This document shows positions 4,013-48,221 of a stretch of DNA of 64,000 bases, piece by piece. The position numbers were made by a program, and so were the translations under genes. The notes below the pieces were generated by a model. That model saw nothing but the letters and a program-made list of their open reading frames with translations. It made no database searches and was not told where the DNA came from. Where the stretch lies: the NCBI GenBank assembly GCA_964387865.1, contig CAYLXC010000002.1:18676-82675 (forward strand). The letters are read 5' to 3'. Source of the stretch: an uncultured Gammaproteobacteria bacterium (GTDB lineage: Bacteria; Patescibacteriota; Microgenomatia; Daviesbacterales; UBA10151). The stretch's first letter is position 1. Each line of letters opens with the position of its first letter.

Positions 4013-6214
4013 ATGAAAATAGTTATTTCAATTTTTTGTCTGGCCACCATTTTAATTGTGATTTGGTTTAGAGACGGCAATATTATGGGGACAGCCGAAG
4101 ATAGCCTCATATTTTACAATATTTCCCGTTTCCTGCCGGAATCACAGTATGCCTGGATGGAGCACCCGGGACTTGGCAGAGTAACCGTACACTTAACTGC
4201 AGCTAGGCCAACTTATGAAGCGCTTAATTTTTTGCAAGTATTAGGTTTTCCTAATTATTTAATTCAGGCATTAACTTTTTGGTTTATCCTTGTTAGTGCG
4301 GGTTTAGGAGTTTATTTAACCGTTAAAGAATTTTTCCCTCAACTTCAAAATAGATATGTTCTGCTTTCAGTTTTATTCTACTTATTTAATCCCCTGTCTT
4401 TAGTAAATGTCTGGAATAGATTTTTATCGGATTACATCTTTGCTTTTGGCTTGCTGCCAATTGTAACTTTTATATTTATAAAGGGACTCAAGAAAAAGAA
4501 TTATCTTTGGAGTCTTGTTTTAGTTTTGGTACTCCCTCTCTATAGCTTTGCTTTTACTTACCTAGCATTCGACATTCTTTTATGGATATTCTTTTTTACT
4601 CTGACTTTGCTTTTCTTTGTAACCAATAAAGAATTAAATGCTCGAATATTTTATATTAAATATTTTTTTCTTACCCTTTTATTGTTTTCACTTACTAATC
4701 TTTGGTGGATCGGTCAGCTAATGAGTCTTAAGCTGTTTAAAAATATTCACTCATCGGTCCTTAATTTTGATATTTCCGGTAATTTAGACATTCTGGATGC
4801 CCTAAGCAAAAAAATGGGCAATCTATCCGACATCTTTAGACTGACAAATGCATCCTTTCTTAATGAAAATTCGCTTTGGTGGGTAAAAACTTTTCACTCG
4901 CTACCTTTTGTTATAATGCAATACCTGATCACATCTTTGATACTTTACTCAATTATTCGGGGTATTAGAAATAAGTCTGTATTAATTTTGGGTGGGTTAT
5001 TTTTTGTAAGCATATATTTGGCAAAAGGGATAAACCCCCCTTTCGGAGAATTGTATAAGTTAATTTTTACAAGCGTTCCATTTTTACAGGTCTTTCGCAA
5101 TCCTTTTGAAAAAGCATCGTTTATTTTAGCTTTATCGGCTACTCTATTAATAGGTTTTAGCGTATTCAACCTTGTTCGGCAACTTCCTAAAAAATTTGGA
5201 AATTTACTATATTTTGGTCTGTTGTGCTTTATTGTCTTAGTATGGGGTTTTCCGTTTTATACAGGATGGGTATTTACATCGCCGGATCCGCCAACAAATA
5301 ATTATAAGGTGGGATATAAAGTTAAAGTTCCTCATTATTATCATGAAGCTGATGGGTGGCTTAAAGGTAAGGGTGATAACTTCCGGTTTATTGGTTTTCC
5401 ACTGGGTGATGAAGGGATAACTTATAACTGGGAGAAAGGTTACTCAGGCGTAGAGCTTTCAACAGCTCTTTTTGCAACCCCGGGAATCTTACATAATACT
5501 GCAGTTCCATATTATCATGAGCTGGTTCCCCACATACAGAAGACCCTACTTTCTCAAGACAATTTCCTAAAGTTGGCAAACGTTTTAAATGTAAAATTTC
5601 TTTTTATCCGCCATGATATTGATTATAAGTTAAGGAAGATGGAAAATCCCGCTATCATTGATAAAAACTTTGCCGAAAGACAGAAGAATAATCAGATCAA
5701 AAAGGTTGCTAATTTTGGTCAGCTAAGTTTTTGGGAAAACATGCAATGGAAAGACAGGACTTTTTATCCTGGCAGAAGGATTGTGAAAAGTTCAAACGAT
5801 CAGCAAGTGTCGGAATTAACTGCTGTAGATGTGAATGAGGATGAAGTATTAATGGATGCAAAAAATATTCAAGCGTTAAATTCTGAGTCCGAGGTTAGTA
5901 TATCTTATGAAAAAATTAATCCTACCAGATATATTGTTCATGTTAAGAATGCGTCTCCTTTTATTTTAGTTTTTTCCGAGCTTTTCAACAACGCCTGGCA
6001 GGCATTTTATGAGGACAACAAACTTGACAAACATTTTAGAGTTAATTTCTATGCCAACGGATGGTATATTGAAAGAAGGGGAAATTATGATATTTTGATT
6101 GAATTTATCCCACAAAGATTACTTTTGGCAGGAGAAAAAATTTCATCTTTTTCATATGCTTCAGTCCTTTTGATATTATTTATTTATCTATTTAGAAAAA
6201 AATGGAAAGCATGA
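4013..6214 (+). CDS. Family-A large polytopic membrane protein (733 aa), YfhO/AftD-like GT-C glycosyltransferase candidate
   Basis: About 11 N-terminal TM helices. Conserved motifs 'AKGINPPFGE', 'FRNPFEKASF', 'NWEKGYSGVEL' and the C-terminal 'FSELFNNAWQAFY...FYANGWYIERRGNYDILIEFIPQ' followed by a terminal TM anchor. Paralogous to 37850, 41816, 44468 and 8..1555. Confidence 0.6.
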   Translation: MKIVISIFCLATILIVIWFRDGNIMGTAEDSLIFYNISRFLPESQYAWMEHPGLGRVTVHLTAARPTYEALNFLQVLGFPNYLIQALTFWFILVSAGLGVYLTVKEFFPQLQNRYVLLSVLFYLFNPLSLVNVWNRFLSDYIFAFGLLPIVTFIFIKGLKKKNYLWSLVLVLVLPLYSFAFTYLAFDILLWIFFFTLTLLFFVTNKELNARIFYIKYFFLTLLLFSLTNLWWIGQLMSLKLFKNIHSSVLNFDISGNLDILDALSKKMGNLSDIFRLTNASFLNENSLWWVKTFHSLPFVIMQYLITSLILYSIIRGIRNKSVLILGGLFFVSIYLAKGINPPFGELYKLIFTSVPFLQVFRNPFEKASFILALSATLLIGFSVFNLVRQLPKKFGNLLYFGLLCFIVLVWGFPFYTGWVFTSPDPPTNNYKVGYKVKVPHYYHEADGWLKGKGDNFRFIGFPLGDEGITYNWEKGYSGVELSTALFATPGILHNTAVPYYHELVPHIQKTLLSQDNFLKLANVLNVKFLFIRHDIDYKLRKMENPAIIDKNFAERQKNNQIKKVANFGQLSFWENMQWKDRTFYPGRRIVKSSNDQQVSELTAVDVNEDEVLMDAKNIQALNSESEVSISYEKINPTRYIVHVKNASPFILVFSELFNNAWQAFYEDNKLDKHFRVNFYANGWYIERRGNYDILIEFIPQRLLLAGEKISSFSYASVLLILFIYLFRKKWKA

Positions 6215-6420
6215 TTTATTGGTTAGTTTTAGGGATATTAATCGTTGCAGCTGCTTCTTTTAAAAAGAGAGCATCATTCTATCTTTCTTTAGCTTTTTAT
6301 CTTTTTATGGCTGGAGCAATACTTAGAATTATCGGTATAAATGATATAGCAGAGCTAATAATGAGGATAAGCCTTATAGGATGGTTAGTTGGACTAGGTC
6401 TATCTTTTAAGCAGTTGTGA
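6202..6420 (+). CDS. Small polytopic membrane protein (72 aa); partner of the family-A gene
   Basis: ATG overlaps the stop of 4013..6214 (ATGGAAAGCATGA). There are 2-3 TM helices. 'DIAELIMRISLIGWLVG' is similar to 'DIGEFIMRLSFIFLLVG' in the small protein at 41331. Confidence 0.4.
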   Translation: MESMIYWLVLGILIVAAASFKKRASFYLSLAFYLFMAGAILRIIGINDIAELIMRISLIGWLVGLGLSFKQL

Positions 6421-7968
6421 GAGTTTGTCTCTTGTAGTAGCGGTTGTGTCTATTAATTTATCAGTGCCTTCTAGCTGAAAGGTAAGTATATTTGTGAGAG
6501 ATATAGGTTGTTCCGGTAGCCCATGCTTAATTAAAGATTTTCCATCCGTCACGGCAGAAATTGATTCTTCAAAACTGCCTAAAGTTACCACTGATTTATA
6601 ATCAGCTAGGCCGTAAATAAGTTGTATTCTGGATGGAAAACCAAAAGTTAATACATTATGAACAATTTCTCCGTTCTCTCCTGTAAAATAAAATGCCAGT
6701 GGTCCTTTTGAAAAATCATCCTTTGAGAATTTTGGTATTTGTGACCAAATCTTATTACTTAACTGTTGATTTCTAACAGCCAACAGTTTGTTAAGGTAGC
6801 TACTAGTTGAAAAAAGATGAATTAGTGTTATTGTTAAAACAAGCAATAACATTATAAGCTTATTCTTTTTATCATGAACTATACTGATAAGAGCTGCTAG
6901 GAATAAGGAGAAACCCCCGGCAGAGATTATTAAATATCTATGAGTTGTGGGAAACATAAAGTTTGGGTCACGAATCCATGGTATTAAGAGAGGGAAAAGA
7001 GTCCAAAGTAGGGATATTATGAATATATCTGCAAGATAAGATTTTCTTTGTTTGATAACTAGCACTAGCCATACAATAATCAAAATCCCTCCAATTAGTG
7101 CAAATGGGATTTCAAACGTTCCTGAAAGATTTGGAATAAACATTCCCCCTATTTCTGCTAAGGCGTACAGCAAAAATTCGGACTGCCCATTTTGAATCAA
7201 TTTAAGACTTGATTCGACCCCTATTATCACTGTGGTTGCTATTCCTTTTGTTGAGGGTTTTATAGTTTGTTTATCCCAATCTGGGGATGAATATGTGGTA
7301 GTGCCTAGTAACAAAAATAGAAATATTAAAATTAACAATGATAATCTTAGGATTACTCTTTTCAATATTCGGGAATCACGATTATTAAGCAGCCAAAAAA
7401 GTTCTATGGAAATAATTAAAGGAACAAGACTGGTAGTTCTTATAGGTGAGCTAATTATGGTTGTATAAAAGAGGCTAGATGTTAGGATTAGTGATTTTAA
7501 TTTTGTATTTTCCCTCAATTTTATAAAAAAGTAAAGAAAAAAATTGAAAAAAGTTACTGTTAAATAAGAAGTCATATTGAAAACCCAATTTGTAGTTTCT
7601 AATCCGATGGGGGTGATAGAGAAAAAAAGAATGGCAAAAAAAGAAGCCAATTTATTTTTAGTAAGAAGGAGTGTAATGGGATAAAAAGAGAAAGATGCGA
7701 GGAGTCTCATTAAATAGGAGATGATATAATATGGTGCTGATTGGAAATCAAAAATTCTTGATAATAATCCCGTGGTGATATCTTGTGGACCATATAAGGT
7801 TTGAAAATATGTAAGGTGATTCCAAACTCCTTTTGAGAATATTCCTACCATTAATTCGTATCTCCATGCAGTTACCCAAAAATCTCCAAAAACAGCAAGA
7901 TTAAATGAAGGAAAGAAGACATACAGACTGGTAGATACTATTATGAGGATTGCTAAAAAATAATACAT
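6400..7968 (-). CDS. Polytopic membrane protein (522 aa), possible distant family-B/GT-C glycosyltransferase
   Basis: At least 10 predicted TM helices. After TM1 there is an 'AVFGDFWVTAW' motif that resembles the family-B 'GF..DDVW' acidic loop. The start overlaps the upstream methyltransferase's stop (TAATG). Confidence 0.4.
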   Translation of the reverse strand: MYYFLAILIIVSTSLYVFFPSFNLAVFGDFWVTAWRYELMVGIFSKGVWNHLTYFQTLYGPQDITTGLLSRIFDFQSAPYYIISYLMRLLASFSFYPITLLLTKNKLASFFAILFFSITPIGLETTNWVFNMTSYLTVTFFNFFLYFFIKLRENTKLKSLILTSSLFYTTIISSPIRTTSLVPLIISIELFWLLNNRDSRILKRVILRLSLLILIFLFLLLGTTTYSSPDWDKQTIKPSTKGIATTVIIGVESSLKLIQNGQSEFLLYALAEIGGMFIPNLSGTFEIPFALIGGILIIVWLVLVIKQRKSYLADIFIISLLWTLFPLLIPWIRDPNFMFPTTHRYLIISAGGFSLFLAALISIVHDKKNKLIMLLLVLTITLIHLFSTSSYLNKLLAVRNQQLSNKIWSQIPKFSKDDFSKGPLAFYFTGENGEIVHNVLTFGFPSRIQLIYGLADYKSVVTLGSFEESISAVTDGKSLIKHGLPEQPISLTNILTFQLEGTDKLIDTTATTRDKLSQLLKR

Positions 7969-8534: not shown

Positions 8535-8584
8535 GGTATTATTTAAATTTAGTAGATCATATAATATTAAGACATTTGTATAAA

Positions 8585-13821: not shown

Positions 13822-13833
13822 AGAGAGATTATA

Positions 13834-14631: not shown

Positions 14632-14683
14632 AATTCTAGTTCATAAAACTGAATATATCAAGTGTAGGTGATATACTAATACA
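14632..14683. promoter_or_regulatory. Divergent promoter region (transaldolase operon on -, heptose genes on +)
   Basis: 52-nt AT-rich spacer containing -10-like 'GATATACT' and 'GAATATAT' between divergent genes. Confidence 0.25.
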
Positions 14684-17628: not shown

Positions 17629-17721
17629 TATTTACATTTGCTGTTAGTAACAGTTATTATATGTGTCAAGTGCTCAAATGCAAGGATTATATCTTTGATT
17701 TTAAGTAATGCAATAATCATT

Positions 17722-18444: not shown

Positions 18445-18451
18445 AAATTAA

Positions 18452-20411: not shown

Positions 20412-20417
20412 ATTAAT

Positions 20418-35247: not shown

Positions 35248-35273
35248 AATATATTATAGTACACTAATTCGGT
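35248..35273. promoter_or_regulatory. Compact divergent promoter (family-B gene on -, RmlD-like gene on +)
   Basis: A 26-nt spacer containing 'TATATTATAGT' -10-like elements. Confidence 0.25.
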
Positions 35274-36167
35274 ATGATTAGAAAAGATAAAGATAAAAGG
35301 ATTTTACTTTTTGGAGGGAGTGGCTTAGTTGGCTCAAGGATTATAAAGCTCCTTAATAATCGTTTCCAAATAATTGCCCCCCCACATATGAAAGTGGATG
35401 TTACCCAAAGAGCCCAAGTAGATAAAATCATTGAACAGGTTTTGCCAGATCATATAATTTATGCTGTGGGTTTAACAAGTGTGGATAAAGCGGAAGAGAA
35501 TTCTAAATTGGCTTATTTATTAAACACAAAGGCACCCACTATGGTGGCCGAAAAGGCTAGTCAACTTCACATTCCAATACTTTATTTCTCAACAGATGCT
35601 GTTTTTGATGGAACAAAAAGCATCAGTCCTTATGAGGAAAGCGATAAGACTAACCCTATCTCAATGTATGGTAAATCAAAGCTTTTGGGTGAGCAAATGG
35701 TTCTGGCCCTTTCTGACAAAAATTGTGTAGTAAGAATTATTACGGTTTACTCACACGTCACAACTGAGAAAAGAGGCTTTGTTCAAGCTGTACTTGAGGC
35801 TTTATCAAAAGGAGAAAAATTTCAAGGAATTACAGATCAAATAATCAATCCGATCTATGTTGATGATATAGTAAAGGCCATATATCTTTTGATTAATAGT
35901 AAAAGCTTTGGCATATATCATTTAGGTGCAACAGATTATATTACAAACTATAATTTTATTAGGAAACTAGCCAAACACCTTAGTTTGGATGAGAAGCTGA
36001 TAGAAGGGATAACCTTTAAGGAATTTTTTAAAAATAAATTGGCAAAGAGAACCAAATATTGTTGGCTAGATACTTCTCTTTTCAGAAAAGAATTTGGTGA
36101 AAACGTCCTTCATACTGTGGATGAAAGCATCATGCTTTTTAAGAAAAATTTAAAGAGGCCATCTTGA
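35274..36167 (+). CDS. RmlD-like NAD(P)-dependent reductase/epimerase (paralog of 20418..21344)
   Basis: 'ILLFGGSGLVGSRIIKLL' and 'YGKSKLLGE' (YxxxK). 297 aa. Confidence 0.6.
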   Translation: MIRKDKDKRILLFGGSGLVGSRIIKLLNNRFQIIAPPHMKVDVTQRAQVDKIIEQVLPDHIIYAVGLTSVDKAEENSKLAYLLNTKAPTMVAEKASQLHIPILYFSTDAVFDGTKSISPYEESDKTNPISMYGKSKLLGEQMVLALSDKNCVVRIITVYSHVTTEKRGFVQAVLEALSKGEKFQGITDQIINPIYVDDIVKAIYLLINSKSFGIYHLGATDYITNYNFIRKLAKHLSLDEKLIEGITFKEFFKNKLAKRTKYCWLDTSLFRKEFGENVLHTVDESIMLFKKNLKRPS

Positions 36168-36885
36168 AGTGTTTAAATCTTTTAACTATCCCCCAAAGGT
36201 ACCAATAAATATATCTTGGTAACCATTTAAATAGTTTGAATTTAGATTTGCCAAAATGTCTTTCTTTCCAAATAGATGGGGTTTCTGTGATTTTATATCC
36301 CAAAAGATAAGCTTTGATTAAAATTTCCATGGCAAATTCCCAGCCCCCAAGGGATTGAATTTTTATTCTTTTTAAAACTTGCCTTCGATACATCTTATAT
36401 CCATTAGTTAAATCAGAAGTTGGAATACCAAGAAGGATGGGGGTAGTAAGTCCTGCAATTTTTGAGAGAATAGTTTTTATAAATCTTCCGCCTACTTGTT
36501 TCCCACCTTTTGAATAACGGGTAGCACAGACAATGTCAAAATCCCTCTTTGCCAGTTGATACATTTTATTGATAGTTTCTGGGTCATCAGCCAAATCTGC
36601 TGGCATAACCACAATAAATTCTCCCAAGCTTTCCATAAAACCAGTTTTAACAGCATTGATCAAACCACCACCCCAAGCATTCTTTACAAGCTTCACATTT
36701 GGAATTTTATTCTTAAGTTTTTTTATAACTGTTATTGTGTCGTCATTATCGAAATCATATACAATAATTACCTCATGTTCACTCTTTACAGCAGATTCCA
36801 AAGAATAAAGGAAGGCAGATATATTTGGACCCTCATTCAAAACAGGTACAATAATGCTGATTGGAAATTTTTGTTTAGTAAGCAT
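36139..36885 (-). CDS. GT2 polyprenyl-phosphate glycosyltransferase (DPM1/GtrB-like)
   Basis: 'ISIIVPVLNEGPNI', 'EVIIVYDFDNDDT', 'TNGYKMYRRQVL'. 248 aa. Confidence 0.7.
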   Translation of the reverse strand: MLTKQKFPISIIVPVLNEGPNISAFLYSLESAVKSEHEVIIVYDFDNDDTITVIKKLKNKIPNVKLVKNAWGGGLINAVKTGFMESLGEFIVVMPADLADDPETINKMYQLAKRDFDIVCATRYSKGGKQVGGRFIKTILSKIAGLTTPILLGIPTSDLTNGYKMYRRQVLKRIKIQSLGGWEFAMEILIKAYLLGYKITETPSIWKERHFGKSKFKLFKWLPRYIYWYLWGIVKRFKHFKMASLNFS

Positions 36886-36975
36886 AATCCCTATTAGTCT
36901 AGAATTATTTTATTTTTTAAACAAGAACCAATACAAAAAATTGCCAAAACAACATTGATATGATAGAAAAGGATT

Positions 36976-37842
36976 GTGAAAAAAGTTTCAGTTATTATAC
37001 CTACTTATAATAGTTGGAAGACGCTTAAAAGTTGTATTATATCTATTCAAAATCAAACTATTAAACCTAAGGAGATTATAGTTGTGGATAATGGATCAAC
37101 TGATGGGACTGCTCAAAAAGTAAAAAAACTTTTCACAAAGATCAAATTGATTACCCTAGATAAAAATACAGGGGTTACCGGTGGTAGAAATACTGGTATA
37201 AAAAGAGCTAACTCTATGTCAGATTATTTATTTTTTTTTGATCATGATATGGTGGCTGAAAAAGATATGCTTAAAGAATTAATAAAAGTGACAGATACGG
37301 ATACTAACATTGGGATTGTTACCCCAAAGATTTATTATTATGGGAAGAAAAAAAGAATTTGGTCAGCAGGAACGGGGATTAATCTTTGGACAGGACAAGT
37401 TTTATTCAGAGGGGGAGATGACCGTGCTCAATACGAGAGAGTGGAAGAAGTACAGGTTGCCCCAGCTGCAATTTTGGTGAGAAAAGAGGTTATTAAGAAA
37501 ATAGGCGGATTCGATAACAGATACTTTGCCACTTATGAAGATACAGATTTTTGTTTCCGTGCTAGGAAGATAGGTTTTAAGACATTTTATGTCCCAAAAG
37601 CAAGAGCTTATCATAAGTTATCTTGGGATCCAAAAGATGATGCTGCAAGAGTCTTGTCAAGATCTTACTGGGTTGGAAGAAATCGTGTAATTTTTATGAA
37701 GGATTTTGGTAAAAATTTTTTCATATTCCTTATGTTTTTGCCAATCTACTTTGTTTATTATTTATATGTAGCATTAAAAAATAAAAATATTGGAGGATGG
37801 TTTAAATTTATACAAGGCACAATTTACGGTTTTTTTACTTGA
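36976..37842 (+). CDS. GT2-family glycosyltransferase (GT-A, DXD)
   Basis: 'VSVIIPTYNSWKTLKSCIISIQNQT...EIIVVDNGSTDGT' and 'FFDHDM' (DXD). GTG start. Confidence 0.7.
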   Translation: MKKVSVIIPTYNSWKTLKSCIISIQNQTIKPKEIIVVDNGSTDGTAQKVKKLFTKIKLITLDKNTGVTGGRNTGIKRANSMSDYLFFFDHDMVAEKDMLKELIKVTDTDTNIGIVTPKIYYYGKKKRIWSAGTGINLWTGQVLFRGGDDRAQYERVEEVQVAPAAILVRKEVIKKIGGFDNRYFATYEDTDFCFRARKIGFKTFYVPKARAYHKLSWDPKDDAARVLSRSYWVGRNRVIFMKDFGKNFFIFLMFLPIYFVYYLYVALKNKNIGGWFKFIQGTIYGFFT

Positions 37843-37849
37843 AAAATAG

Positions 37850-40800
37850 ATGAGCTTAAGGATAAATATAACATTGCTGATACTCCTGCTCATTCCCACC
37901 TTGCTAGTCTTAATTTGGTTTAGACATGGTAATATTATGGCTACGGGGGAATCAGGAATTCCCTTCTATGATTTTAATATACAATTAAAAATTAACAAGG
38001 ATGCTTGGGCAGATTATACTCTAGGACATCCTACTAATATTGGTGTTGCTGCCACTCCTACGTACTGGTTCTTTGCAAGTTTGCAAAGCTTTGGAATTCC
38101 AGACTTCTTACTTCAAGCTTTTTTCTTTTGGTTGGTTTTAGTAATTTCCGGTATCAGTATTTTTTTATTATCCAAAGAACTTTTTAATAAATTAGATAGT
38201 AAATTTTTAATACTTGCTGTATTTTTTTATTGGTTTAACCCATTTGCCTTAGTTAACATTTGGAATAGATTTTTAAATAATTATTTTGTTTTTTATGCAT
38301 TTGTACCACTTGCGCTGCTTCTTTTCATAAAAGGGATCAGATTGCAAAGATATATTTATTCTATCTTGATAGGTCTTTTGTCTGCAATATTCTCTTATTC
38401 TCAAACATCTATGGCATTAAATGTAATATTTTGGTTAGTCCTATTTTATACCGCTATATTTTATATATTTGTAGAAAACAGCTGGATAAATAGATTCTTT
38501 ATAATTAAGTTTTTTATATTGACATTTATTTTTTGGTTTGTAGTTAATAGTTGGTGGATTAATCAAGTTTTTAATTATATATCATCAGGCAGTTTTGATG
38601 CTGTTTCTACAGGTTCCTTCACAGCAATTGGAAATTATCAAACATTCGCTAACTTAAGCGCAATACTTGGAAATATATCAGACCTAATTAGATTACGTCA
38701 TGACTATTTTTTTAACAATCCAGATATATCTTGGATAAAAATTTATAATTCCCCAATATTTACTTTATTTAATTTTTTTATGGCTATGCTAATTTCTATT
38801 CCCATCATTTTTATAAAAAATCGAGCAGTACTTTTTACTGGAGGATTATTTTTAATAGGTATTTTTTTAACTAAAGGTAATAATCCTCCTTTTGGTGAGA
38901 TCAATGACAGTGTGTTTTTGTTCTCCCCATTAATGCAGCTATTCAGAAATCCATTCGAGAAGTTTGGATTTATACTTGCTTTATCATCAACGCTTTTATT
39001 TATACAAGGCTCAAAATCTATATGCGATTTATTAAAAAATAAAGCCAGGGAACTATTTTATTTCTCTGTCGTTATAATAATTACTTTAGTTTGGGGAATA
39101 TCTTTTTGGACAGGTTCTGTATTCATAGGCGCAGAAAGACCAATCAATGATTCTAAGATAGGTTATCAGGTTAAGGTACCAGAGCATTACAAACAAGCAT
39201 CTGAATGGTTGAGATCCCAAAATGATGACTTTAGATTAATCGTTTTGCCAATAGGGGGGGAAGGGATAACTTATAAATGGGAAAAAGGTTATTCTGGGGT
39301 TGAATTAACTAATCAGTTGTTACCTAAAACTGCCATATCTTTTAGTACTAATATTCCGTTTTATGATGATGTTTCAAAAAATATTGAGAGATTATTTCTT
39401 ACAACAAACTTATTGCCATCCCTATCCAATGCACTAAACACAAAATATATATTATATAGACCAGATATAGACTGGGAGGTAAGGAAAATGAGAGATCCCA
39501 AAGTAGTACTCTCTAAATTGGAGGAAAAACAACAAAAAGGGGAATTAACAAAAGTTGCTCAATTTGGTGATTTGATTTTCTTTCAGATTACATCCAAGGA
39601 CAAAGAGGAGATTTATACAGCTAACACTACATTCTTAAGTTATTCAAAACCGAATATTTCTGATTTAGAATTCTCTCAAAGTAATTTGGTAATTAGTACG
39701 GGGAATAAAATAGATAAGATACCGAAAAATAAAATCGAGGGGGAAGTTATACACCCTAAGGCGCAATTTTTTTTAGATTATAAAAAAGAGCCTGTTTTTG
39801 AGATTAGACAAGATATTTTTCCGCATGTGGCAATTTTACCGAAACAAATAAGTTATCCTTTTGTTGTAATTAAAGATAGACTTAAGGAGGAAACCATTAA
39901 AGACAGAGAAGAATTATTGGAATATAGACTTGTTATTTTAGGAAAGAGATTGGTTGAGGCTAAGTTTTCAGCGGATTTAAATGATGAAGGCGGGATACGT
40001 ATAGCAATAGTTCATTACCATACACTTTTGGATAGGACAATTAGATTGCTTGAACAGCTTTATATGATTGATCAGGGAAATAAACAAGCTTCACTCCAAG
40101 GTAAGCTATACTTAATATTTTCAAGGCATGTTAAAGTTTTAGAAGATTTGCAAAATAGGTTTGGGCAAACTAGCAAAACAGGAGTAGAGGTAGAAAGTAC
40201 TTTAAAATTGCTAAAGACAAGTCTGATCCGAGCCCATATTTATCCCGCTTACGGTTTTTTGGAAGATTTAGAATTCCCGCTAAAAAGGAGAATGATATAT
40301 CATTTTGAAGTTAAAAAGAGCGGGGAATATGAGTTACTTTGGGATGAGAAGATATTGAATGGCTATTACAAAATATCTTCAGGCGATCAAATAGTGCTAC
40401 AAGTTGACGATGAACTTTCTAAAATGAATTTAAAAACTGATGGTAAAGGTCATGTCAGCTTAGGTAAAGTTTATTTTGAAGAAGGTAGTCACGAAATTGG
40501 ATTAAACTTGCCAGAGGAAATAAATCTTATAGAGGTTCCTTTAAGCATGAATTTTAAGGTTGATCATGGAAGTAAAGTTGATTACTTTCCGATCAAAAAT
40601 TACGATTCTTATTCAAGCTACAACATTAATTTTGATTATTGGATAAAAAAAGGCAATGGTGTTCAAATTTTAGTATACGATAAAAAGCCTGAAGATATAA
40701 TATCTACAACGAAGCCTCGTAAGGAGTCCGTAGTAGGACCGGATTTATATGATTATACACCTAAAAATTATTTTGGGTTGTTTAAACTATCTGAAGGTGC

Positions 40801-41338
40801 TGAAGAGGCAACTATTGCATTAGAAGTAATTCCTTGGAATGACTGCGAAACAATATTCTACTCTAACAGAAGGGAACGGTGCAAAACTGAGGATTTTAGG
40901 AGACCATACGATAAGACCACAGATGTTGATATCAGTAAACTGAGTGTAACGCGTAGCTTTTCTGATTTGCCAGTTTTAGTAAAAAAAGATCTAGTTGATA
41001 AATCTTTATCTCCCCAACACAAATTTAAGAAATTAGATACAACAACTTATCAGATAGAAATAAAGGAGGTCAAAAAACCCTTCTTTCTTGTTTTTTCCGA
41101 ATTGTTTGATCCGGGTTGGAGATTGATGGATACTGATGGAAAGATTTTAAATTATCAACACTTCTTGGCAAATGGTTATGCCAATGGTTGGTATATTGAT
41201 AGGATGGGTAATTTTCAAATAATCCTAAAATTTACTCCTCAAGATTTATTAAAATTGGGTGAAAAAATATCTTTCGTAGGAGTTTCTTTTGGATTAATAT
41301 TTGTAGCCTATGAAATTTGGTGGAGAAAAAATGCTTAA
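37850..41338 (+). CDS. Family-A large polytopic membrane protein (1162 aa), YfhO/AftD-like GT-C glycosyltransferase candidate with an expanded extracytoplasmic domain
   Basis: N-terminal 'IWFRHGNIMATGESG' (compare 4013 'IWFRDGNIMGTAEDS'). Motifs 'TKGNNPPFGE', 'FRNPFEKFGF', 'KWEKGYSGVEL' and C-terminal 'FSELFDPGWRL...LANGYANGWYIDRMGNFQIILKFTPQ' followed by a terminal TM. The roughly 430-aa excess over 4013 lies in the soluble region. Confidence 0.6.
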   Translation: MSLRINITLLILLLIPTLLVLIWFRHGNIMATGESGIPFYDFNIQLKINKDAWADYTLGHPTNIGVAATPTYWFFASLQSFGIPDFLLQAFFFWLVLVISGISIFLLSKELFNKLDSKFLILAVFFYWFNPFALVNIWNRFLNNYFVFYAFVPLALLLFIKGIRLQRYIYSILIGLLSAIFSYSQTSMALNVIFWLVLFYTAIFYIFVENSWINRFFIIKFFILTFIFWFVVNSWWINQVFNYISSGSFDAVSTGSFTAIGNYQTFANLSAILGNISDLIRLRHDYFFNNPDISWIKIYNSPIFTLFNFFMAMLISIPIIFIKNRAVLFTGGLFLIGIFLTKGNNPPFGEINDSVFLFSPLMQLFRNPFEKFGFILALSSTLLFIQGSKSICDLLKNKARELFYFSVVIIITLVWGISFWTGSVFIGAERPINDSKIGYQVKVPEHYKQASEWLRSQNDDFRLIVLPIGGEGITYKWEKGYSGVELTNQLLPKTAISFSTNIPFYDDVSKNIERLFLTTNLLPSLSNALNTKYILYRPDIDWEVRKMRDPKVVLSKLEEKQQKGELTKVAQFGDLIFFQITSKDKEEIYTANTTFLSYSKPNISDLEFSQSNLVISTGNKIDKIPKNKIEGEVIHPKAQFFLDYKKEPVFEIRQDIFPHVAILPKQISYPFVVIKDRLKEETIKDREELLEYRLVILGKRLVEAKFSADLNDEGGIRIAIVHYHTLLDRTIRLLEQLYMIDQGNKQASLQGKLYLIFSRHVKVLEDLQNRFGQTSKTGVEVESTLKLLKTSLIRAHIYPAYGFLEDLEFPLKRRMIYHFEVKKSGEYELLWDEKILNGYYKISSGDQIVLQVDDELSKMNLKTDGKGHVSLGKVYFEEGSHEIGLNLPEEINLIEVPLSMNFKVDHGSKVDYFPIKNYDSYSSYNINFDYWIKKGNGVQILVYDKKPEDIISTTKPRKESVVGPDLYDYTPKNYFGLFKLSEGAEEATIALEVIPWNDCETIFYSNRRERCKTEDFRRPYDKTTDVDISKLSVTRSFSDLPVLVKKDLVDKSLSPQHKFKKLDTTTYQIEIKEVKKPFFLVFSELFDPGWRLMDTDGKILNYQHFLANGYANGWYIDRMGNFQIILKFTPQDLLKLGEKISFVGVSFGLIFVAYEIWWRKNA

Positions 41339-41648
41339 GATAATTAAAATTAGTTTACCTTTGATTTGGTTTTCAGGGATTGTTTATCTTCTTATTAGCT
41401 CTTTAATTGAGAATCGTTTCCTTGAGGAATATATTTATTGGTTAGTTTTGATAGGCTTAATTTTTTTTATATGGTTATGGAAGAGAAACAGCAAATTTTC
41501 ATTGTATTCTTCTTTTACTCTATTTTTAATTTCTGCACTAATTGTGACCTTTGGTTTTAAAGATATCGGGGAATTTATAATGAGGTTAAGTTTTATTTTT
41601 TTGTTGGTAGGTTACATTCAATCATTGGTAGAGTATAAAAGGGAGTAG
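41331..41648 (+). CDS. Small 4-TM membrane protein (105 aa); partner of the family-A gene
   Basis: ATG overlaps the stop of 37850..41338 (ATGCTTAA). Four predicted TM helices. 'FKDIGEFIMRLSFIFLLVGY' is conserved with the ORF at 6202. Confidence 0.4.
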   Translation: MLKIIKISLPLIWFSGIVYLLISSLIENRFLEEYIYWLVLIGLIFFIWLWKRNSKFSLYSSFTLFLISALIVTFGFKDIGEFIMRLSFIFLLVGYIQSLVEYKRE

Positions 41649-41655
41649 TGTTTCG

Positions 41656-41826
41656 ATGAAAAGTAAATACTTATTTTCGGTATTTCTATTAGGTCTTCTC
41701 ATAAGTTTTGTCTCGCTAATTTTAGATCATCCAGGTTTTGCTTTGCGGATTGTTATTTACAATTACTTCATATTGAGTTTAGCGGTAGTAGTGTATATAT
41801 GGGAGATAAAGAAAAATGAAAAATAA
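41656..41826 (+). CDS. Very small membrane protein (56 aa, 2 TM), below the ORF-track length cutoff
   Basis: ATG at 41656 reads MKSKYLFSVFLLGLLISFVSLILDHPGFALRIVIYNYFILSLAVVVYIWEIKKNEK and stops at 41824..41826. It overlaps the start of 41816..44455 by 11 nt. Confidence 0.3.
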   Translation: MKSKYLFSVFLLGLLISFVSLILDHPGFALRIVIYNYFILSLAVVVYIWEIKKNEK

Positions 41827-44455
41827 TAAAATATTCCCAATTTTAATTTTGGCCATTTTCTTAATCTTTATTTACTGGAAGTGGTGGTTGCCCGGACCAA
41901 GGGTGGCTAATGATTTTTCGTTTACCTCCAATTCTTTACTTAAATCTTTAGCGGACTTTCCTTATGTATGGATGGAAAAAGCATCAGAGGGTTTAGGTGA
42001 ATATACTATTTTTACTCTTTGGTCTTATCCTTTAAATTTCATTTCCGGTGTTTTGGCAAATCTTGGTCTTGGTTTTGTTATACAAGAAAGGATTCTTTTT
42101 CTAATACCAATTTTACTATTTGGAGCATGGGGTATTTGGAGGCTTTTTGGAAAAGTAAATGTATCAAGTTATGCAAAACTTGTTGCTACTTTATTTTATT
42201 TAGCCAACACCTATATTCTGCTTTTAATTGATGGAGGACAATTTAATGTTGCTTTGGCGTACTCCTTTTTTCCAATAAGCTTTGTAGCTGTGGAGCAATC
42301 GGTCAAGGGAGGTTTGAGGAGTAAAATTTTGGCAGGTTTGATAGTATTCGTATTAGGATTTTTTGATATTAGATTTATTTATATCTTGTTTTTTTTAAGT
42401 TTCTTGCGGTTCTTATACCAGCCAACGAATATCCTGAGTTGGATAAAAAGCGGGTTTTCTATTACCGTAATTTTGATGGGACTAAATGCTTATTGGCTTC
42501 TGCCTTACCTTAAGGTACCACTTTCTGAGACTACTTATGCTTTCTTAACAGAAACCTCTTCCATAAGTTTCACTAATTTGGGGCATGGAATTCTTCTTCT
42601 TGCGCCACATTGGCATAAGAATGTTTTTGGCCAAATTACCCCTTTAAGATGGGAGTTTATGTTTATACCAATCTTAGTTTTTCTTGCTCCAATCTTAGGG
42701 AAAAGAAGTAATAAGATCGGTTTTTGGCTTTTGGTGGCCTTAATTTCTACTTTTTTAGTTAAGGGTACCTCTGAACCTTTTACTCAAGTTTATCTGTGGC
42801 TTTTTCACAACCTGCCAGGTTTTTCATTATTTCGAGACCCTAGCAAATTTTTCTTTTTAGTAACTCTGTCGTATAGCGTCTTAATGGCTATATCTTTGGA
42901 TGTGATTATAAAAAAATTGGCTCATTGGTCAAAAATTAAATTTTTATTCATATCATCAGTAATTTTTTATCTAATTTTTCTTGTTAGGCCAGTGTGGCTA
43001 GGGCAGATGACTGGAACATTTTCTCAGCCTCTTTTTGAGAAAGAATATTCTCAACTAGATCAAATTTTGGCACAAGATCAGAAATTTAGTCGCGTATTTT
43101 GGATGCCTACTATTGCACCTTTAACCCGGCAAATTTTAGAACATCCTTCTTTAGAAGCTGCCCGTTTAGTCGGCAAAAGGCCTTTTGCCGTTGGAACTGT
43201 CGGTACATATGAAACATTTAATTTTTTAAGAGAAGCTCCCTTTATGGGAGAAATTTTTGATGTGGCTGGTATAGGTTATATAGCATATCCCTATCTCGAT
43301 AAAAGAAGAGATAATTTACACTCAGATAATATTAGATATTATTATACTTTCTCAGATCAATTATCTAAACTTTCTTGGTTAGCAAAAGTAGATAATGTAC
43401 CAATGCCTTTATGGAAAGTCAGCCAGCATCAAGGTAAGTTTTTTATTACCCCCAATGTATGGTGGATTATAGGATCAGACAGTATTTACAATGAGGCAAC
43501 TAAAAGTGCTCAACTTAAACTTTTCAAGAACGCTTTAATATTTACTGAAGAACGTGCAGGATTAGGAAAGAGATTAGATGAATTACCACAGGCAAAAGTT
43601 GTCCTCAACCGTAAGACTTTGATTGATTTTGCCGCCAGCTTTATTGACCCATCAAGAATAATCTTTCCAGCAAGGAATCTTGGAGTTAGTCCTGATCAAT
43701 CAGGGTGGTGGAAGAGGGAAGCTAAAGATTTGATAAGCTGGAGAGATTTCCTGCAAGCCGAATATGGCATAGATAATTTGGATTTTGATTTAGGTGGAGG
43801 TTGGGCTGTAGGAGAGGGAAATTTAAAATTAAAAGTTAAAAGTGAAAAATTAAAGCAAAAACAGGTTTTATTGGTTCGAACCCTTGAAAGTACTCGGAGC
43901 GGACAATTAAGTTTTTATCAAGATGATAAATTAATTGGACAAATAAATACCAGAAAAGAAGGAAATAATGTTAGGTGGTTTGAGGTAGGCCAGCTGATCG
44001 AAGATGGCGAACTGATAATGAAATCAGAAGGTGATATTAATGTGGTTAATGCATTAGCTGTGTTAGATAAAAAGGAGTGGATTGTAATTCAAAATAAAGC
44101 AAAGGAAAAACAAAATAGAATTGCTAATTTTGATGAGAAGAATACTCAACAAGCTCTCCCAAGTGTGACATATCAGCAAATAAATTCTACTAAATATAGA
44201 GTCTCCATCAATAACTTGACTCAACCAAGTTTTATTGTTTTTTCTCAAAGTTATGACAATGGCTGGAAAATGGATGGTGAAAAATCACTACCGGCTTATA
44301 GTCTGCTTAATGGATTTAGAATAGAGAAAGATGGTACTTATGAGGTAAGGTTTGTACCTCAGAGCTGGGTTTATCCAGGTCTAATAATATCAGGGATCTC
44401 CTTTTTTGTTCTAATAGTTGTTTTAACTATGTCCAAAGTTAGAAGTAGGAGCTGA
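41816..44455 (+). CDS. Family-A large polytopic membrane protein (879 aa), divergent YfhO/AftD-like GT-C candidate
   Basis: 'VKGTSEPFTQ', 'FRDPSKFFF' and C-terminal 'FSQSYDNGWKMDGEK...LLNGFRIEKDGTYEVRFVPQ' followed by a terminal TM. The most diverged member of family A. Confidence 0.55.
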   Translation: MKNNKIFPILILAIFLIFIYWKWWLPGPRVANDFSFTSNSLLKSLADFPYVWMEKASEGLGEYTIFTLWSYPLNFISGVLANLGLGFVIQERILFLIPILLFGAWGIWRLFGKVNVSSYAKLVATLFYLANTYILLLIDGGQFNVALAYSFFPISFVAVEQSVKGGLRSKILAGLIVFVLGFFDIRFIYILFFLSFLRFLYQPTNILSWIKSGFSITVILMGLNAYWLLPYLKVPLSETTYAFLTETSSISFTNLGHGILLLAPHWHKNVFGQITPLRWEFMFIPILVFLAPILGKRSNKIGFWLLVALISTFLVKGTSEPFTQVYLWLFHNLPGFSLFRDPSKFFFLVTLSYSVLMAISLDVIIKKLAHWSKIKFLFISSVIFYLIFLVRPVWLGQMTGTFSQPLFEKEYSQLDQILAQDQKFSRVFWMPTIAPLTRQILEHPSLEAARLVGKRPFAVGTVGTYETFNFLREAPFMGEIFDVAGIGYIAYPYLDKRRDNLHSDNIRYYYTFSDQLSKLSWLAKVDNVPMPLWKVSQHQGKFFITPNVWWIIGSDSIYNEATKSAQLKLFKNALIFTEERAGLGKRLDELPQAKVVLNRKTLIDFAASFIDPSRIIFPARNLGVSPDQSGWWKREAKDLISWRDFLQAEYGIDNLDFDLGGGWAVGEGNLKLKVKSEKLKQKQVLLVRTLESTRSGQLSFYQDDKLIGQINTRKEGNNVRWFEVGQLIEDGELIMKSEGDINVVNALAVLDKKEWIVIQNKAKEKQNRIANFDEKNTQQALPSVTYQQINSTKYRVSINNLTQPSFIVFSQSYDNGWKMDGEKSLPAYSLLNGFRIEKDGTYEVRFVPQSWVYPGLIISGISFFVLIVVLTMSKVRSRS

Positions 44456-44467
44456 TATAATGAAATC

Positions 44468-47400
44468 ATGCTTAAATCTGGTGTTCTATTTTTACTTATT
44501 GCCTTAGTTTTAGTCACAATTTGGTTTAGACAGGGATTAATCTTTGGTGGAGCAGAGGTAGGCATACTTACCTATAATCCTAAAAGGTTTTTGGAGATAC
44601 AACAGTACATTTGGTGGGGTGCTGTAGCCCCTGGGATGCTTGTTCCTCACTTTACTACTGGTGTTCCCCTTTACCTTGTATTGTCTCTAATACAAGGTAT
44701 ATTTTCTCTGGTGATTTTACAAGCTGGAATTTTTTTCTGCTTACTCTTTCTGATGGGTTACGGAATGTATCTTTTCTCTCTTGCCATATTTGGTACAGAT
44801 AAGAAACTTTATGCCCTACTGGCTGGAATTTTTTACATGTTTAATTCCTATACAGTAGTTGAGATCTGGCACCGCTTTTTATATACCGGTTTTTTCCTTG
44901 CTGCCTTTCTGCCTTTCTTTGCTCTTTTTTGGAAGAAGTGGATAAATAAGGGTCAATTCTTATTTTTAGTTCTTTTTCTGCTGACTAGTTTAATCTCTTC
45001 TTACATGTTTGGAAATTTAGCGTCTATCTTGACTGTGTGGTTACTGATACTGCTTATTACTATTTCTGATGCAATTTTTCCTTTAAGAAAAAATGAACTA
45101 ATTAAAATAGGTTTGAGATTCTTTTTAGGAGTTTTTTTCTGGTTGGTTACTAATGTTTGGTGGTTAATTCCTGTTTTAGGAGTTTCAACAGGTTTACTAC
45201 CTGAGCAACATTCCAGCGAAGACAACATCAATACTTTAATAAATATAGGCAAACAAACAATACTTCCCTTTACGCTTCAGTTTGCTAACCCTTTCTATCT
45301 TTTTTACACTGCTGAGCTGGGACAAATTTACAACAGTTTATTTTTTAAAATTCTTCCTTGGATTCCAACTATAATTATTTTTAGTGGTCTTTTAGCTGCC
45401 TTTAAACAAAAAAATTTGGCCAAATTTTCACTGATTTATCTTTTAGTAATAATATTTTCCAAGGGGCCCACTTCACCTTTTGGTTACCCTTATATATGGA
45501 GTTTTATGAACATTTATGCCTTAGGAGTGATAAGGAATCCCTTTGAGAAATTAGGAATTTTGTTACCCTTTTTTGGCAGTATTCTTTTTGTAGTAGGAGT
45601 GACTTTGGTTTACTCTTGGGGTATTAAAAAAATTGGATTATTAGGTTCCAGATTTTTAATTGCTGTAAGTTTATTATCCATATTAGTTTATGCTTGGCCT
45701 ATGTTTACAGGTAAGGTGATTAGTAAACCCTTGGAGCCGTTACAAGTTAGTATCCCGTCTTATTACAAACAAGCAGATGATTTTCTTAAAAATCAGATAG
45801 AAAAAGAAGGCAATATCTTGCACTTACCTTTTTCAGGAAGAGATGTAGTTACCTACAATTGGCAAAATGGTTACCATGGAGTTGATATAAATCAAATTTT
45901 ATTTAGCTCTTCGCCTTCCATATCCAGAAACATGGGGCTTAAAAGAGTAGATGATACTTTAAAAAGCCTGACTTTAGTATTTAGTAACCCCCTTTCAAAA
46001 AAAGAGGATTTAGTCATAAGACTTTTACAAGATCTGAATGTTAAATTTATAGTACTCCATAAAGAGGTAAAATGGACAGATATATCTACTTATGGCAAAG
46101 ATATTAGGTTGATTAATCCTCAAGAAATCGAAGCGACTTTAAACGGTTATGACTTTTTAGAGAGACAAATAAGTTTTGGAGATTTAATTATTTATAAGCT
46201 GAAAGATAATTCTTTTAAAGGCAAAATTGCCTTCTCTGAGACTGCCAGCTTAGTTTATCCGGGAGAAAGTAGTTATCTGCAAATAAATACATTTACTGAT
46301 AAAGACAATATAATTACAACTCAAAGTAATAATCTTTCTGAACAAACTTTATCAAAAATTAAAGATATTTTTCTCTTTCCAGAAAGTAGCCTAAATTATT
46401 CGGTAGCTTCTGAGAGCGCCATAATAGATTTGATAAACAATCATGATTCCTTGATAAATCAGTTAACCTTTATGAAAAATTATTTTTCCCAAACAGGGCT
46501 ATTGATGAGTGAGGAGTTAACAGAAAAGATTTTAAAAGCAACCGAAAAATTACTTAAAATTTCTAACTCAGGATTGATATCATTTGAGACTTATGAGAAT
46601 TCACTGAATGATATATTTAAAAATAATTTTAAAGATATAAGTCTATTAAAACTATTTAAGTCCCAAATAATTAATACTTTTTATCTGCATTCGTATATTC
46701 TAGAAAAATCGAGTAAAGGGCATTCTGCGAGGAAAATTTTAATGGAGGGTTTAAAGGAGAATGATTTGTTACCCCTTTACTTACAATCCAATATTATATC
46801 TGAGGAGGAAATAAATAAGAGAATAGCTCGATTTAAAGTTCCGTTCAAATCAAAGTATGAAATTTTAATAGTTCCTCCTAGGATTGCAGATTTATACGCT
46901 GATTTTTTACCTAAATTAGATGTTCGAGTAAATGATAACACTTTAGAAACTAAAGGTAAACTGGATAAAAATATTATTTCATTTGGAGAGTTTGATTTTG
47001 ATGAAAATACATATGAAATAAGTTACAATTCACTCCTTTCATTTAATTTATTACCTTCCATTGATAAAATCTTAAAGATGGGAAATGTAGAGCTTAAGGA
47101 AGGTAGTGTACATCTAATCTCTGGCGAGCAAGAGATAGCTTATTTAGAAGCTCCTTTGAGGGGAGTTAGTGGCAATGATGTCTACAATATTACCTTTGAT
47201 GTGTTATTTGAGATGGGAAATGAGTTTTATATAGAAATAATGCAAGAGAGTGAAGACTTCGATAACCAAAAGGAATATCAAACAATTCAATCAAATGAAT
47301 GTTTTGTGCATACTTGTTATCCCATAAAATTAGATCCTAGTAAAAGTGGTTGGCAAAAATATTCTCTTTTGACATCGCCTCTAAATCCTATCAGTCAAAG

Positions 47401-47893
47401 AGCAAATTTTAGAATTATAGTATTTTCCAAATTTGAAAATTCTCAAAAAATCCATGGAGATATTTTCATTAAAAACTTACAAGTAAACAAAGTCTTTGAT
47501 GGAGAAGTCGTTTTAAGAAAGAAAGTATCGAAAAGCTTAGGAAATTCCTCAGGCGAGCTAATTACCATAAATCATCAAACACCAATATCTTATTTTGGGA
47601 AAATTAAATTAAATCAACCTTCATTTCTTCTGTTTAAAGAGACCTTTCACCCTGGATGGAGTTTAACACTTACCCAAGGTGATAACCTTTATAAGATAGA
47701 TAAACACTTTATGGGCAATCTATATGCTAACTCTTATTTTATAGAAAAAGTAGGAGAGTATGATTTTAAACTTGAATTTGAACCGCAAAAGGGGGTAGTG
47801 AGGGGACTTTTGATAACACTGTTAGGATGGGTTATCGTACTTATGATTTTTATTTGGTCACAATTCAGAGGGAGAAAGTATGAAAGAGACTAA
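44468..47893 (+). CDS. Family-A large polytopic membrane protein (1141 aa), YfhO/AftD-like GT-C glycosyltransferase candidate
   Basis: 'IWFRQGLIFGGAEVG', 'SKGPTSPFGYPY', 'IRNPFEKLGI', 'NWQNGYHGVDI' and C-terminal 'FKETFHPGWSL...LYANSYFIEKVGEYDFKLEFEPQ' followed by a terminal TM. Confidence 0.6.
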   Translation: MLKSGVLFLLIALVLVTIWFRQGLIFGGAEVGILTYNPKRFLEIQQYIWWGAVAPGMLVPHFTTGVPLYLVLSLIQGIFSLVILQAGIFFCLLFLMGYGMYLFSLAIFGTDKKLYALLAGIFYMFNSYTVVEIWHRFLYTGFFLAAFLPFFALFWKKWINKGQFLFLVLFLLTSLISSYMFGNLASILTVWLLILLITISDAIFPLRKNELIKIGLRFFLGVFFWLVTNVWWLIPVLGVSTGLLPEQHSSEDNINTLINIGKQTILPFTLQFANPFYLFYTAELGQIYNSLFFKILPWIPTIIIFSGLLAAFKQKNLAKFSLIYLLVIIFSKGPTSPFGYPYIWSFMNIYALGVIRNPFEKLGILLPFFGSILFVVGVTLVYSWGIKKIGLLGSRFLIAVSLLSILVYAWPMFTGKVISKPLEPLQVSIPSYYKQADDFLKNQIEKEGNILHLPFSGRDVVTYNWQNGYHGVDINQILFSSSPSISRNMGLKRVDDTLKSLTLVFSNPLSKKEDLVIRLLQDLNVKFIVLHKEVKWTDISTYGKDIRLINPQEIEATLNGYDFLERQISFGDLIIYKLKDNSFKGKIAFSETASLVYPGESSYLQINTFTDKDNIITTQSNNLSEQTLSKIKDIFLFPESSLNYSVASESAIIDLINNHDSLINQLTFMKNYFSQTGLLMSEELTEKILKATEKLLKISNSGLISFETYENSLNDIFKNNFKDISLLKLFKSQIINTFYLHSYILEKSSKGHSARKILMEGLKENDLLPLYLQSNIISEEEINKRIARFKVPFKSKYEILIVPPRIADLYADFLPKLDVRVNDNTLETKGKLDKNIISFGEFDFDENTYEISYNSLLSFNLLPSIDKILKMGNVELKEGSVHLISGEQEIAYLEAPLRGVSGNDVYNITFDVLFEMGNEFYIEIMQESEDFDNQKEYQTIQSNECFVHTCYPIKLDPSKSGWQKYSLLTSPLNPISQRANFRIIVFSKFENSQKIHGDIFIKNLQVNKVFDGEVVLRKKVSKSLGNSSGELITINHQTPISYFGKIKLNQPSFLLFKETFHPGWSLTLTQGDNLYKIDKHFMGNLYANSYFIEKVGEYDFKLEFEPQKGVVRGLLITLLGWVIVLMIFIWSQFRGRKYERD

Positions 47894-48221
47894 AAAGATT
47901 TTTATTGCTCTAGTTTTGGTAATAATACTTACCATTATATTTACTATTTTAGACTCTGGGCTACGTATCAAGCAATTGAACTTACTAATTCAACCATTAA
48001 TTTTTGCCCTCGTAGCTACAATTAGCTTTCTTTTTGGATCATACAGAAAATTGCTTTTATTTTTTTCCGCCAATTTACTATCTTTAATGATTATTACTTA
48101 CCTATTTAACCTACTTGATGCTGCTAATTGGGTAGGAAGTTTGGGTTTTGGCATACTAATTATTGTTTTTTGTTCCTACATTCCAGTATTAATTAAAAGG
48201 GATCATATTGAAAAATTTTAA
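47880..48221 (+). CDS. Small 4-TM membrane protein (113 aa); partner of the family-A gene
   Basis: Start overlaps the last 14 nt of 44468..47893. Four predicted TM helices. Confidence 0.4.
   Translation: MKETKKIFIALVLVIILTIIFTILDSGLRIKQLNLLIQPLIFALVATISFLFGSYRKLLLFFSANLLSLMIITYLFNLLDAANWVGSLGFGILIIVFCSYIPVLIKRDHIEKF

Follow-up and report, generated by a model that had tools for sequence, protein, structure and literature searches.

Why do four paralogous genes for large membrane proteins, all within one bacterial locus, each have a tiny membrane-protein gene at one of their ends? The question is raised by a 64-kb stretch of contig CAYLXC010000002.1 (~32% G+C; hereafter the window), in which four open reading frames (ORFs) of 56 to 113 amino acids (aa), termed S1 to S4, abut four large genes termed family A. 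In all domains of life, cell-envelope glycans are made by GT-C glycosyltransferases, whose helper proteins are poorly understood. The window, from an uncultured and ultra-small groundwater bacterium, shows two unnamed families of small proteins in strict one-to-one association with four paralogous AftD-like enzymes. S1 to S4 are genuine conserved genes for small polytopic membrane proteins, which are under purifying selection and are co-inherited with family A paralogue by paralogue. Profile searches show that they are not members of the GtrA, SMR or GacJ families. We see an even chance that they encode dedicated membrane subunits, one for each GT-C paralogue, which would associate physically with their enzymes. 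The arrangement works in the manner of known multi-component systems of transmembrane glycosylation, where a GT-C enzyme has small polytopic proteins as companions.

The small genes and their large neighbours

A first-pass annotation of the window had placed small membrane-protein genes at four family-A junctions, and all four lie exactly where it put them. It had described them as genes at family-A 3' ends, which applies to S1, S2 and S4, while S3 lies at a 5' end. The small genes and their neighbours are listed in genomic order with their transmembrane (TM) helices and, in brackets, the basis of each assignment, including hidden Markov model (HMM) searches and AlphaFold2 (AF2) models.

4013..6214, + strand: A733, 733 aa, a short GT-C-like membrane protein of family A, with an extracytoplasmic domain between 11 N-terminal TM helices and a C-terminal one (ORF, weak PF11847 match, TM count)
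6202..6420, + strand: S1, short-form S-alpha small membrane protein, 72 aa, 3 TM helices (ORF; S-alpha HMM, E=1e-26)
37850..41338, + strand: A1162, long family-A AftD-like GT-C membrane glycosyltransferase (predicted), 1162 aa, single C-terminal TM helix (PF11847)
41331..41648, + strand: S2, long-form S-alpha protein, 105 aa, 4 TM helices, both ends inside (ORF, HMMER family, AF2 model)
41656..41826, + strand: S3, 2-TM hairpin, 56 aa, truncated relative of S-alpha covering TM1-TM2 (homologues, hhalign)
41816..44455, + strand: A879, polytopic membrane protein, 879 aa (BLAST, TM count)
44468..47893, + strand: A1141, divergent family-A paralogue, 1141 aa, 10 N-terminal and 1 C-terminal TM helices (BLAST, TM count)
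47880..48221, + strand: S4, S-beta small membrane protein, 113 aa, 4 TM helices, both ends inside (ORF, homologues)

A scan for ORFs of 40-135 aa beside the 51 ORFs of at least 180 aa returns S1 to S4 as the sole non-nested ORFs of this size in the window; this count leaves aside a fragment at the window end and an ORF in another frame within S2. All four touch a family-A gene, one small ORF abutting each of the four, and the other ~47 genes of the window have no such neighbour. These include six polytopic paralogues of another family (family B), whose lack of a small partner points to specificity for family A.

At the S1 junction, ATGGAAAGCATGA occupies positions 6202-6214, and the TGA at 6212-6214 ends the 733-aa gene. 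An alternative in-frame start at ATG 6211 would yield a protein of 69 aa and an ATGA overlap with this stop codon, and many short homologues begin with M[IF]YW, in agreement with that start. At its 3' end, S1 overlaps by 21 nt the 3' end of a convergent gene for a 522-aa family-B protein (6400-7968, - strand). At the S2 junction, ATGCTTAA spans 41331-41338 and contains the TAA (41336-41338) that ends the 1162-aa gene, giving an overlap of 8 nt. The sequence GGTGGAG lies 5 nt 5' of the S2 start at ATG 41331; gene callers take ATG 41310 as the start. The S3 gene overlaps the A879 start (41816) by 11 nt with its 3' end, and S4, whose ATG at 47880 is preceded by GGGAG, overlaps the final 14 nt of the 1141-aa gene.

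Hydropathy predicts three TM helices in S1, four in S2, two in S3 and four in S4, and by the positive-inside rule the N and C ends of S2 and S4 are cytoplasmic. The AF2 model of S2 likewise consists of four helices, with a predicted local distance difference test score (pLDDT) of 89. S1, which lacks TM1, corresponds to TM2-TM4 of the S2-type form, and S3 to TM1-TM2, with one helix common to S1 and S3.

Among the large proteins, A733, A1162 and A1141 are homologous over their full length at 25-38% identity (A733 and A1162, 38% over 599 aa; A1141 and A1162, 25% at full length, E=1.6e-53). By BLAST, A879 shares with the other members only its C-terminal 100-200 residues including the C-terminal TM helix. 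By hydropathy, family A has ~11 TM helices in its N-terminal part, then a large extracytoplasmic region, and at the C terminus a single TM helix followed by a basic tail in the cytoplasm. A glutamate is invariant in the motif WFR.GN....E right after TM1, as expected for a GT-C enzyme. Family A has the elements of the AftD-type layout: an N-terminal block of ~11 TM helices, a conserved acidic residue in the first loop on the outside, a large outside domain and a re-entry TM helix. A1162 matches PF11847 (GT-C_AftD) with 31.1 bits (cut-off 26, E=8.2e-8) over profile positions 406-544 only, and A733 reaches a sub-threshold 22 bits (E=4.6e-5). The Pfam scan found no match in A1141 or A879. A879 has a sub-threshold NCBIfam match to MmpA (NF053599; E=1.4e-10, residues 286-387), which in Corynebacterineae is a membrane protein for trehalose-lipid delivery. 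Judged by these sequence features, family A is best classed as distantly AftD-like GT-C.

Small-protein families and inheritance of the pairs

Sequence comparison places S1, S2 and S3 in one superfamily, here named S-alpha, and S4 as the founder of a second, S-beta. The motif noted in the first-pass annotation as common to S1 and S2 is real, with 44% identity between the two proteins over 64 aa (E=1e-12). When a profile of S1 and S2 was used in an exhaustive HMMER search, 183 S-alpha cluster representatives (50% identity) were recovered at E<=1e-3, 60 of them at E<=1e-10. Their lengths are bimodal, at 70-80 aa and 100-125 aa, with a range of 48-189 aa among the 150 matches listed. The S-alpha consensus reads YW..L...K..S...L..AF.LF..SA....G....AE.IMRISFIGWLVG..QAL.EYK, and none of 59 members matches a Pfam family; NCBIfam gives none either. 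S-beta consists of S4 and twelve relatives (110-113 aa, 44-100% identity) with 19 invariant residues, including QP, RK and W.GSLGFG, and a scan of the 13 members found no Pfam match. An hhalign comparison aligned S-alpha and S-beta in register at a probability of 4.6%, which is not significant, and hence the two families are kept apart. Seven homologues of S3 share the motif [ND]H.GFA.R....Y.FW......YIW..NEK. The S3 alignment matches S-alpha at a probability of 93% (hhalign, E=3.5e-7) over TM1-TM2, and S3 lacks AE..MR.S, the most conserved S-alpha motif. Both families carry small-residue motifs in TM4, IGWLVG (GxxxG) in S-alpha and W.GSLGFG in S-beta, which would suit helix packing. S-alpha and S-beta were seen here only in Microgenomates-type sequences, as far as can be judged from one named metagenome-assembled genome (MAG) and the sample types.

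To follow the pairs, we compared the window with related loci (L001 to L019) from groundwater-type metagenomes and one MAG, Candidatus Daviesbacteria JACPKL010000005.1. These loci were found via the small proteins and are a biased sample in this respect, though the second and third pairs of a locus are present without having been selected for. The motif varies too much for DNA-pattern scans of genomes and metagenomes, which found no more than 1 and 5 loci. The first-pass annotation had proposed a conserved synteny with overlapping junctions that would lapse if the ORFs were not conserved in homologous loci. They are conserved, and the pairs recur with overlapping junctions in ~15 independent related loci. 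In 13 of 14 distinct loci, the gene directly 5' of S-alpha is of the A1162 or A733 type; S-beta comes directly after an A1141-type gene in 7/7, and the S3 family overlaps an A879-type start by 4-19 nt in 7/7, with L014 as the only locus in which an A879-type gene has no S3. Across loci the pairs overlap by 1-22 nt, and GGAG-type ribosome-binding sites are found at many junctions. The A1162 orthologues measure 1112-1172 aa (L001, L003, L008, L014-L016, L019), and a short partner goes with a short enzyme both in the window and in L017, where in the orthologous pair a protein of 738 aa precedes one of 70 aa.

The divergence of each small gene follows that of its own partner and not that of its neighbour. 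Relative to L001, S2 and A1162 are 70% and 69% identical, whereas the adjacent S3 and A879 are 20% and 48% identical. Relative to L019, it is S4 and A1141 that are similar (85% and 81%), and S2 and A1162 have 44% and 46% identity. The ratio of nonsynonymous to synonymous substitution rates (dN/dS) is 0.11 for S2 and 0.14 for A1162 (against L001), and 0.19 for both S4 and A1141; the value of 0.3-0.4 for S3 is unreliable, as synonymous sites are saturated. Over seven loci, the divergence of S3 and A879 is positively correlated without reaching significance (r=0.72, p=0.07). This tracking of the own partner, together with the conserved pairing, argues for a functional and probably physical partnership, as the first-pass annotation had supposed.

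Compared with L019, the operon at 37850-49485 is a mosaic: A1141, S4 and the following Wzx-type gene are 77-85% identical, A1162, S2 and A879 44-48%, and S3 21-22%. Enzyme and partner modules seem, from these identities, to be exchanged as units.

We considered S3 as a partner of S2 in the style of ArnE/ArnF. This was rejected because S3 is found apart from S-alpha in L003, L004, L007, L008 and L016, in all of which it stays with the A879-type gene. Where S3 follows a divergent gene, a conserved GTATATAATTT stands 4-6 nt before its start:

L007, 8734-8749: GTATATAATTT, -10 box-like, 5' of the S3 homologue
L008, 11586-11601: the same element, 5' of the S3 homologue
L016, 11645-11660: the same element, 5' of the S3 homologue

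The likeness of this element to a -10 promoter box suggests a leaderless transcript that runs from S3 into the A879-type gene.

The suspicion that annotation pipelines miss such tiny genes is borne out for S3, whereas S1, S2 and S4 are already called genes in public protein sets. S3 is absent from the public protein set of the contig, its homologue in L003 (9868-10026, GTG start) is uncalled, and that in L004 (6506-6670) is replaced by a wrong-frame call of 82 aa at 6403-6651. The comparison provides new gene models, above all for the ~56-aa S3 family, which pipelines miss or miscall.

Proposed dedicated subunits and the alternatives

S1-A733, S2-A1162, S3-A879 and S4-A1141 are translationally coupled cognate pairs. 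If S1 to S4 are dedicated subunits, each small protein would be made in step with its enzyme as an integral inner-membrane protein. It would pack on the TM domain of the enzyme, probably on the lone C-terminal helix, and might be needed for enzyme stability or activity, or for the handling of donor or acceptor at the outer membrane face. A possible model for this arrangement is AftD (PDB 6W98 family), in which TM1-11 adopt the GT-C fold and are followed by periplasmic domains, a single TM12, a long loop and a separate TM13-16 domain that ends in the cytoplasm and binds the phosphopantetheine arm of acyl carrier protein (bioRxiv 10.1101/2019.12.22.885152). Family A resembles this enzyme in its ~11 TM helices, outside domain and one further TM helix. 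It stops after this TM12-like helix, and a 4-TM protein whose two ends lie inside is encoded by the gene that follows, so the layout is that of a split AftD, in which the S proteins would be counterparts of the TM13-16 that are fused after TM12 in mycobacterial AftD. S2 and S4 are such four-helix proteins with both ends cytoplasmic, and S1 and S3 would be partial versions with only three and two helices. The systems differ in that TM13-16 are fused in AftD and separately encoded here, and no sequence or fold similarity was detected between the S proteins and TM13-16. The possible equivalence is one of architecture. We tentatively propose, as the less probable extension of the subunit reading, that S-alpha and S-beta are obligate, separately encoded subunits and the free-standing counterpart of AftD TM13-16, an ancient autonomous module. 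If so, joint duplication of module and enzyme in Microgenomates-group bacteria gave rise to at least four cognate pairs, with pared-down 3-TM and 2-TM versions among them.

Several observations weigh against these proposals. The link of family A to AftD consists of one partial Pfam match; sequence and profile searches of the PDB with A1162 and the family-A alignment return no AftD chain or other match, and the AF2 model of A733, built on an alignment of the four window paralogues only, has a pLDDT of 45 and is too poor to confirm the fold. On the side of the small proteins, the S-alpha profile finds nothing in the PDB, and structure searches with the S2 model give only generic helical matches (Foldseek best E 3.3, no match). 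A fusion of family A with S-alpha is absent among the 150 matches listed, all of which are <=189 aa. Furthermore, in L012/L013 (5992-6228 in each) a lone 78-aa short-form S-alpha gene lies between two minus-strand genes, 2.6 kb away from an A733-like gene (940 aa) that is read in the other direction; it is the sole non-adjacent case sampled. Finally, a tight overlap with a GT-C gene is no proof of a subunit. Gene overlap alone does not discriminate between the readings, because E. coli arnT-arnE-arnF has the same overlapping layout and ArnE/ArnF is a flippase.

The small ORFs might in principle not be genes at all. At ~32% G+C, long hydrophobic chance ORFs are favoured, and S3 is very short, fast-evolving (20-48% identity) and often uncalled; alternatively, the ORFs could be C-terminal pieces of family A that were split off by assembly frameshifts. 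Such an artefact is contradicted by significant conservation at the protein level (183 S-alpha clusters, seven S3 homologues), by conserved lengths with start codons and ribosome-binding sites in place, by a dN/dS of 0.11-0.19, and by the recurrence of the split in ~15 independent assemblies with differing overlap lengths. Fused versions are likewise lacking among the 150 matches listed. We regard an artefact as excluded for practical purposes, because of this conservation, the independent starts and the lack of fusions. A further alternative is that the small proteins act as membrane activators or anchors of neighbouring cytoplasmic GT2 enzymes. The precedent is GacJ of Streptococcus pyogenes, a small 3-TM membrane protein that stimulates the GT-A enzyme GacI and is thus an activating glycosyltransferase subunit and not a transporter (PMC8035078), and GT2 genes do adjoin A1162 in the window (36139-36885, 36976-37842) as well as in L001, L014, L015 and L016. 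The partner of GacJ is a cytoplasmic GT-A enzyme, however, whereas the small genes follow the GT-C paralogues and not the GT2 genes. The S1-A733 pair has no adjacent GT2 gene in the window or in L017, the S3/A879 module of L007, L008 and L016 stands without GT2 behind its own promoter-like site, the 288-aa GT2 enzyme of the window carries a TM helix of its own, and a DUF2304/GacJ-type Pfam match was not found. A GacJ-like role is therefore improbable, because several pairs have no adjacent GT2.

The more serious alternative is that the small proteins are flippases, or flippase subunits, of new families, each dedicated to the polyprenyl-phosphate-sugar donor that the neighbouring GT-C enzyme uses. 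As such, they would be functional analogues of GtrA/GtcA, Rv3789 or ArnE/ArnF, acting as homo- or hetero-oligomers. In GtrA/GtcA systems, a small 3-4 TM protein is encoded together with a GT2 polyprenyl-phosphate glycosyltransferase and a GT-C enzyme (PMC8035078, PMC11127046), and the order of a GT2 gene with a C-terminal TM helix, a GT-C gene and a small 4-TM gene in the window mirrors such three-component systems. S2 and S4 have the size (105-113 aa), the four TM helices and the topology with both ends inside of GtrA- or SMR-type proteins (PMC8035078). Conserved residues, charged ones among them, lie at the predicted outer membrane boundary; in S-alpha these are E81 and R85, in S-beta D25, Q38 and P39. 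In E. coli, arnT is followed by arnE and arnF (111 and 128 aa, 4 TM each), with overlaps of 4 nt (arnT/arnE) and 1 nt (arnE/arnF), and A1162-S2-S3 matches this layout of a small 4-TM gene overlapping the 3' end of a GT-C gene. The likeness ends with the division of labour: ArnE and ArnF together make up a single flippase that serves one enzyme, whereas here each of four GT-C paralogues has a partner of its own, and S3 belongs to the downstream enzyme and not to S2.

Family membership does not support the identity as GtrA that the first-pass annotation had offered as one candidate. None of 76 proteins matched PF04138 (E<=1 for S1 to S4; E<=0.1 for 59 S-alpha and 13 S-beta members), NCBIfam gave no match, and with respect to the size of GtrA (~120 aa, 3-4 TM) the helix count fits S1, S2 and S4, of which S1 is much shorter, and does not fit S3. 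Other families of small membrane proteins fared no better. Pfam scans of the S proteins gave no match to PF00893 (SMR) or PF00892 (EamA), nor did scans of Pfam and NCBIfam yield one to DUF2304, and hhalign comparison of the S-alpha and S-beta profiles with E. coli ArnE and ArnF gave probabilities of 0.1-0.4%. The sole trace on the SMR/EamA side is a weak NCBIfam match of S2 to TIGR00688 RarD (E=0.015). In the known GtrA-type systems, several GT-A/GT-C pairs share a flippase whose gene need not adjoin theirs, and in L. lactis one CflA serves three pairs (PMC8035078), whereas the S proteins are paralogue-specific, are tied one to one to their GT-C enzyme and overlap its gene. S3 with two TM helices and S1 with three have only one helix in common, and S3 lacks the AE..MR.S motif. 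A Wzx/MOP flippase gene stands directly 3' of S4 and is conserved there. Even for GtrA-type proteins, flippase activity is unproven (PMC11127046).

The subunit reading accounts better than a transporter for the strict one-to-one specificity, the partial 3-TM and 2-TM forms, the GxxxG-type motifs, which lie in the helix of highest conservation, and the Wzx gene after S4. We thus favour dedicated subunits, at about an even chance of being correct, over dedicated flippases of new families, which we consider less probable, though a serious alternative. Of the two roles put forward in the first-pass annotation, the regulatory or stabilising one fits the data better, and the GtrA-like one fails as regards family identity. 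Tiny obligate membrane subunits of a GT-C enzyme have a parallel in the eukaryotic oligosaccharyltransferase, whose small subunits, such as Ost4, stabilise the GT-C subunit STT3. The likeness is by analogy only, since homology and operon coupling are lacking and the complex is eukaryotic. In the literature, we found no precedent for a one-to-one pairing with four paralogous enzymes that includes truncated and upstream partners. The four pairs constitute a natural experiment that sets a structural subunit against a donor-delivery device, and separate encoding makes the module easy to remove.

Neighbouring genes

The window is dense in genes of glycan biosynthesis, including GT1 and GT2 glycosyltransferases, methyltransferases, sugar-nucleotide enzymes and a Wzx-type flippase. 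Those that bear on the pairs, and the family-B genes, are as follows.

36976..37842, + strand: GT2 glycosyltransferase, 288 aa, one C-terminal TM helix (residues 249-267), directly 5' of A1162 (PF00535, E=5.6e-33)
48208..49485, + strand: Wzx/MOP-type polysaccharide flippase, 425 aa, directly behind S4, with TTG 48208 or ATG 48226 as start codon (PF01943, E=5e-19; PF13440, E=3.2e-18)
6400-7968, - strand: family-B polytopic paralogue (six members, 522-643 aa)
22131-24002, + strand: family-B polytopic paralogue
24027-25892, + strand: family-B polytopic paralogue
25897-27744, - strand: family-B polytopic paralogue
27778-29709, + strand: family-B polytopic paralogue
33340-35247, - strand: family-B polytopic paralogue

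The 288-aa GT2 enzyme is a candidate polyprenyl-phosphate-sugar synthase, and the order of GT2 followed by A1162 is also found in L001, L015 and L016. The Wzx-type gene has kept its place behind or close to S-beta in L003, L004, L006 and L019. The family-B proteins are 21-36% identical to one another and have no Pfam match, one member showing a weak NCBIfam match to a mannosyltransferase; they may represent another GT-C-like or polymerase-like family. The ~27 kb from 36976 to 63849 make up one very long operon-like array, in which genes of a single strand follow each other with hardly any intergenic space. It holds GT2 genes, family-A genes with small partners, the Wzx gene, methyltransferases and further ORFs of glycosyltransferase size.

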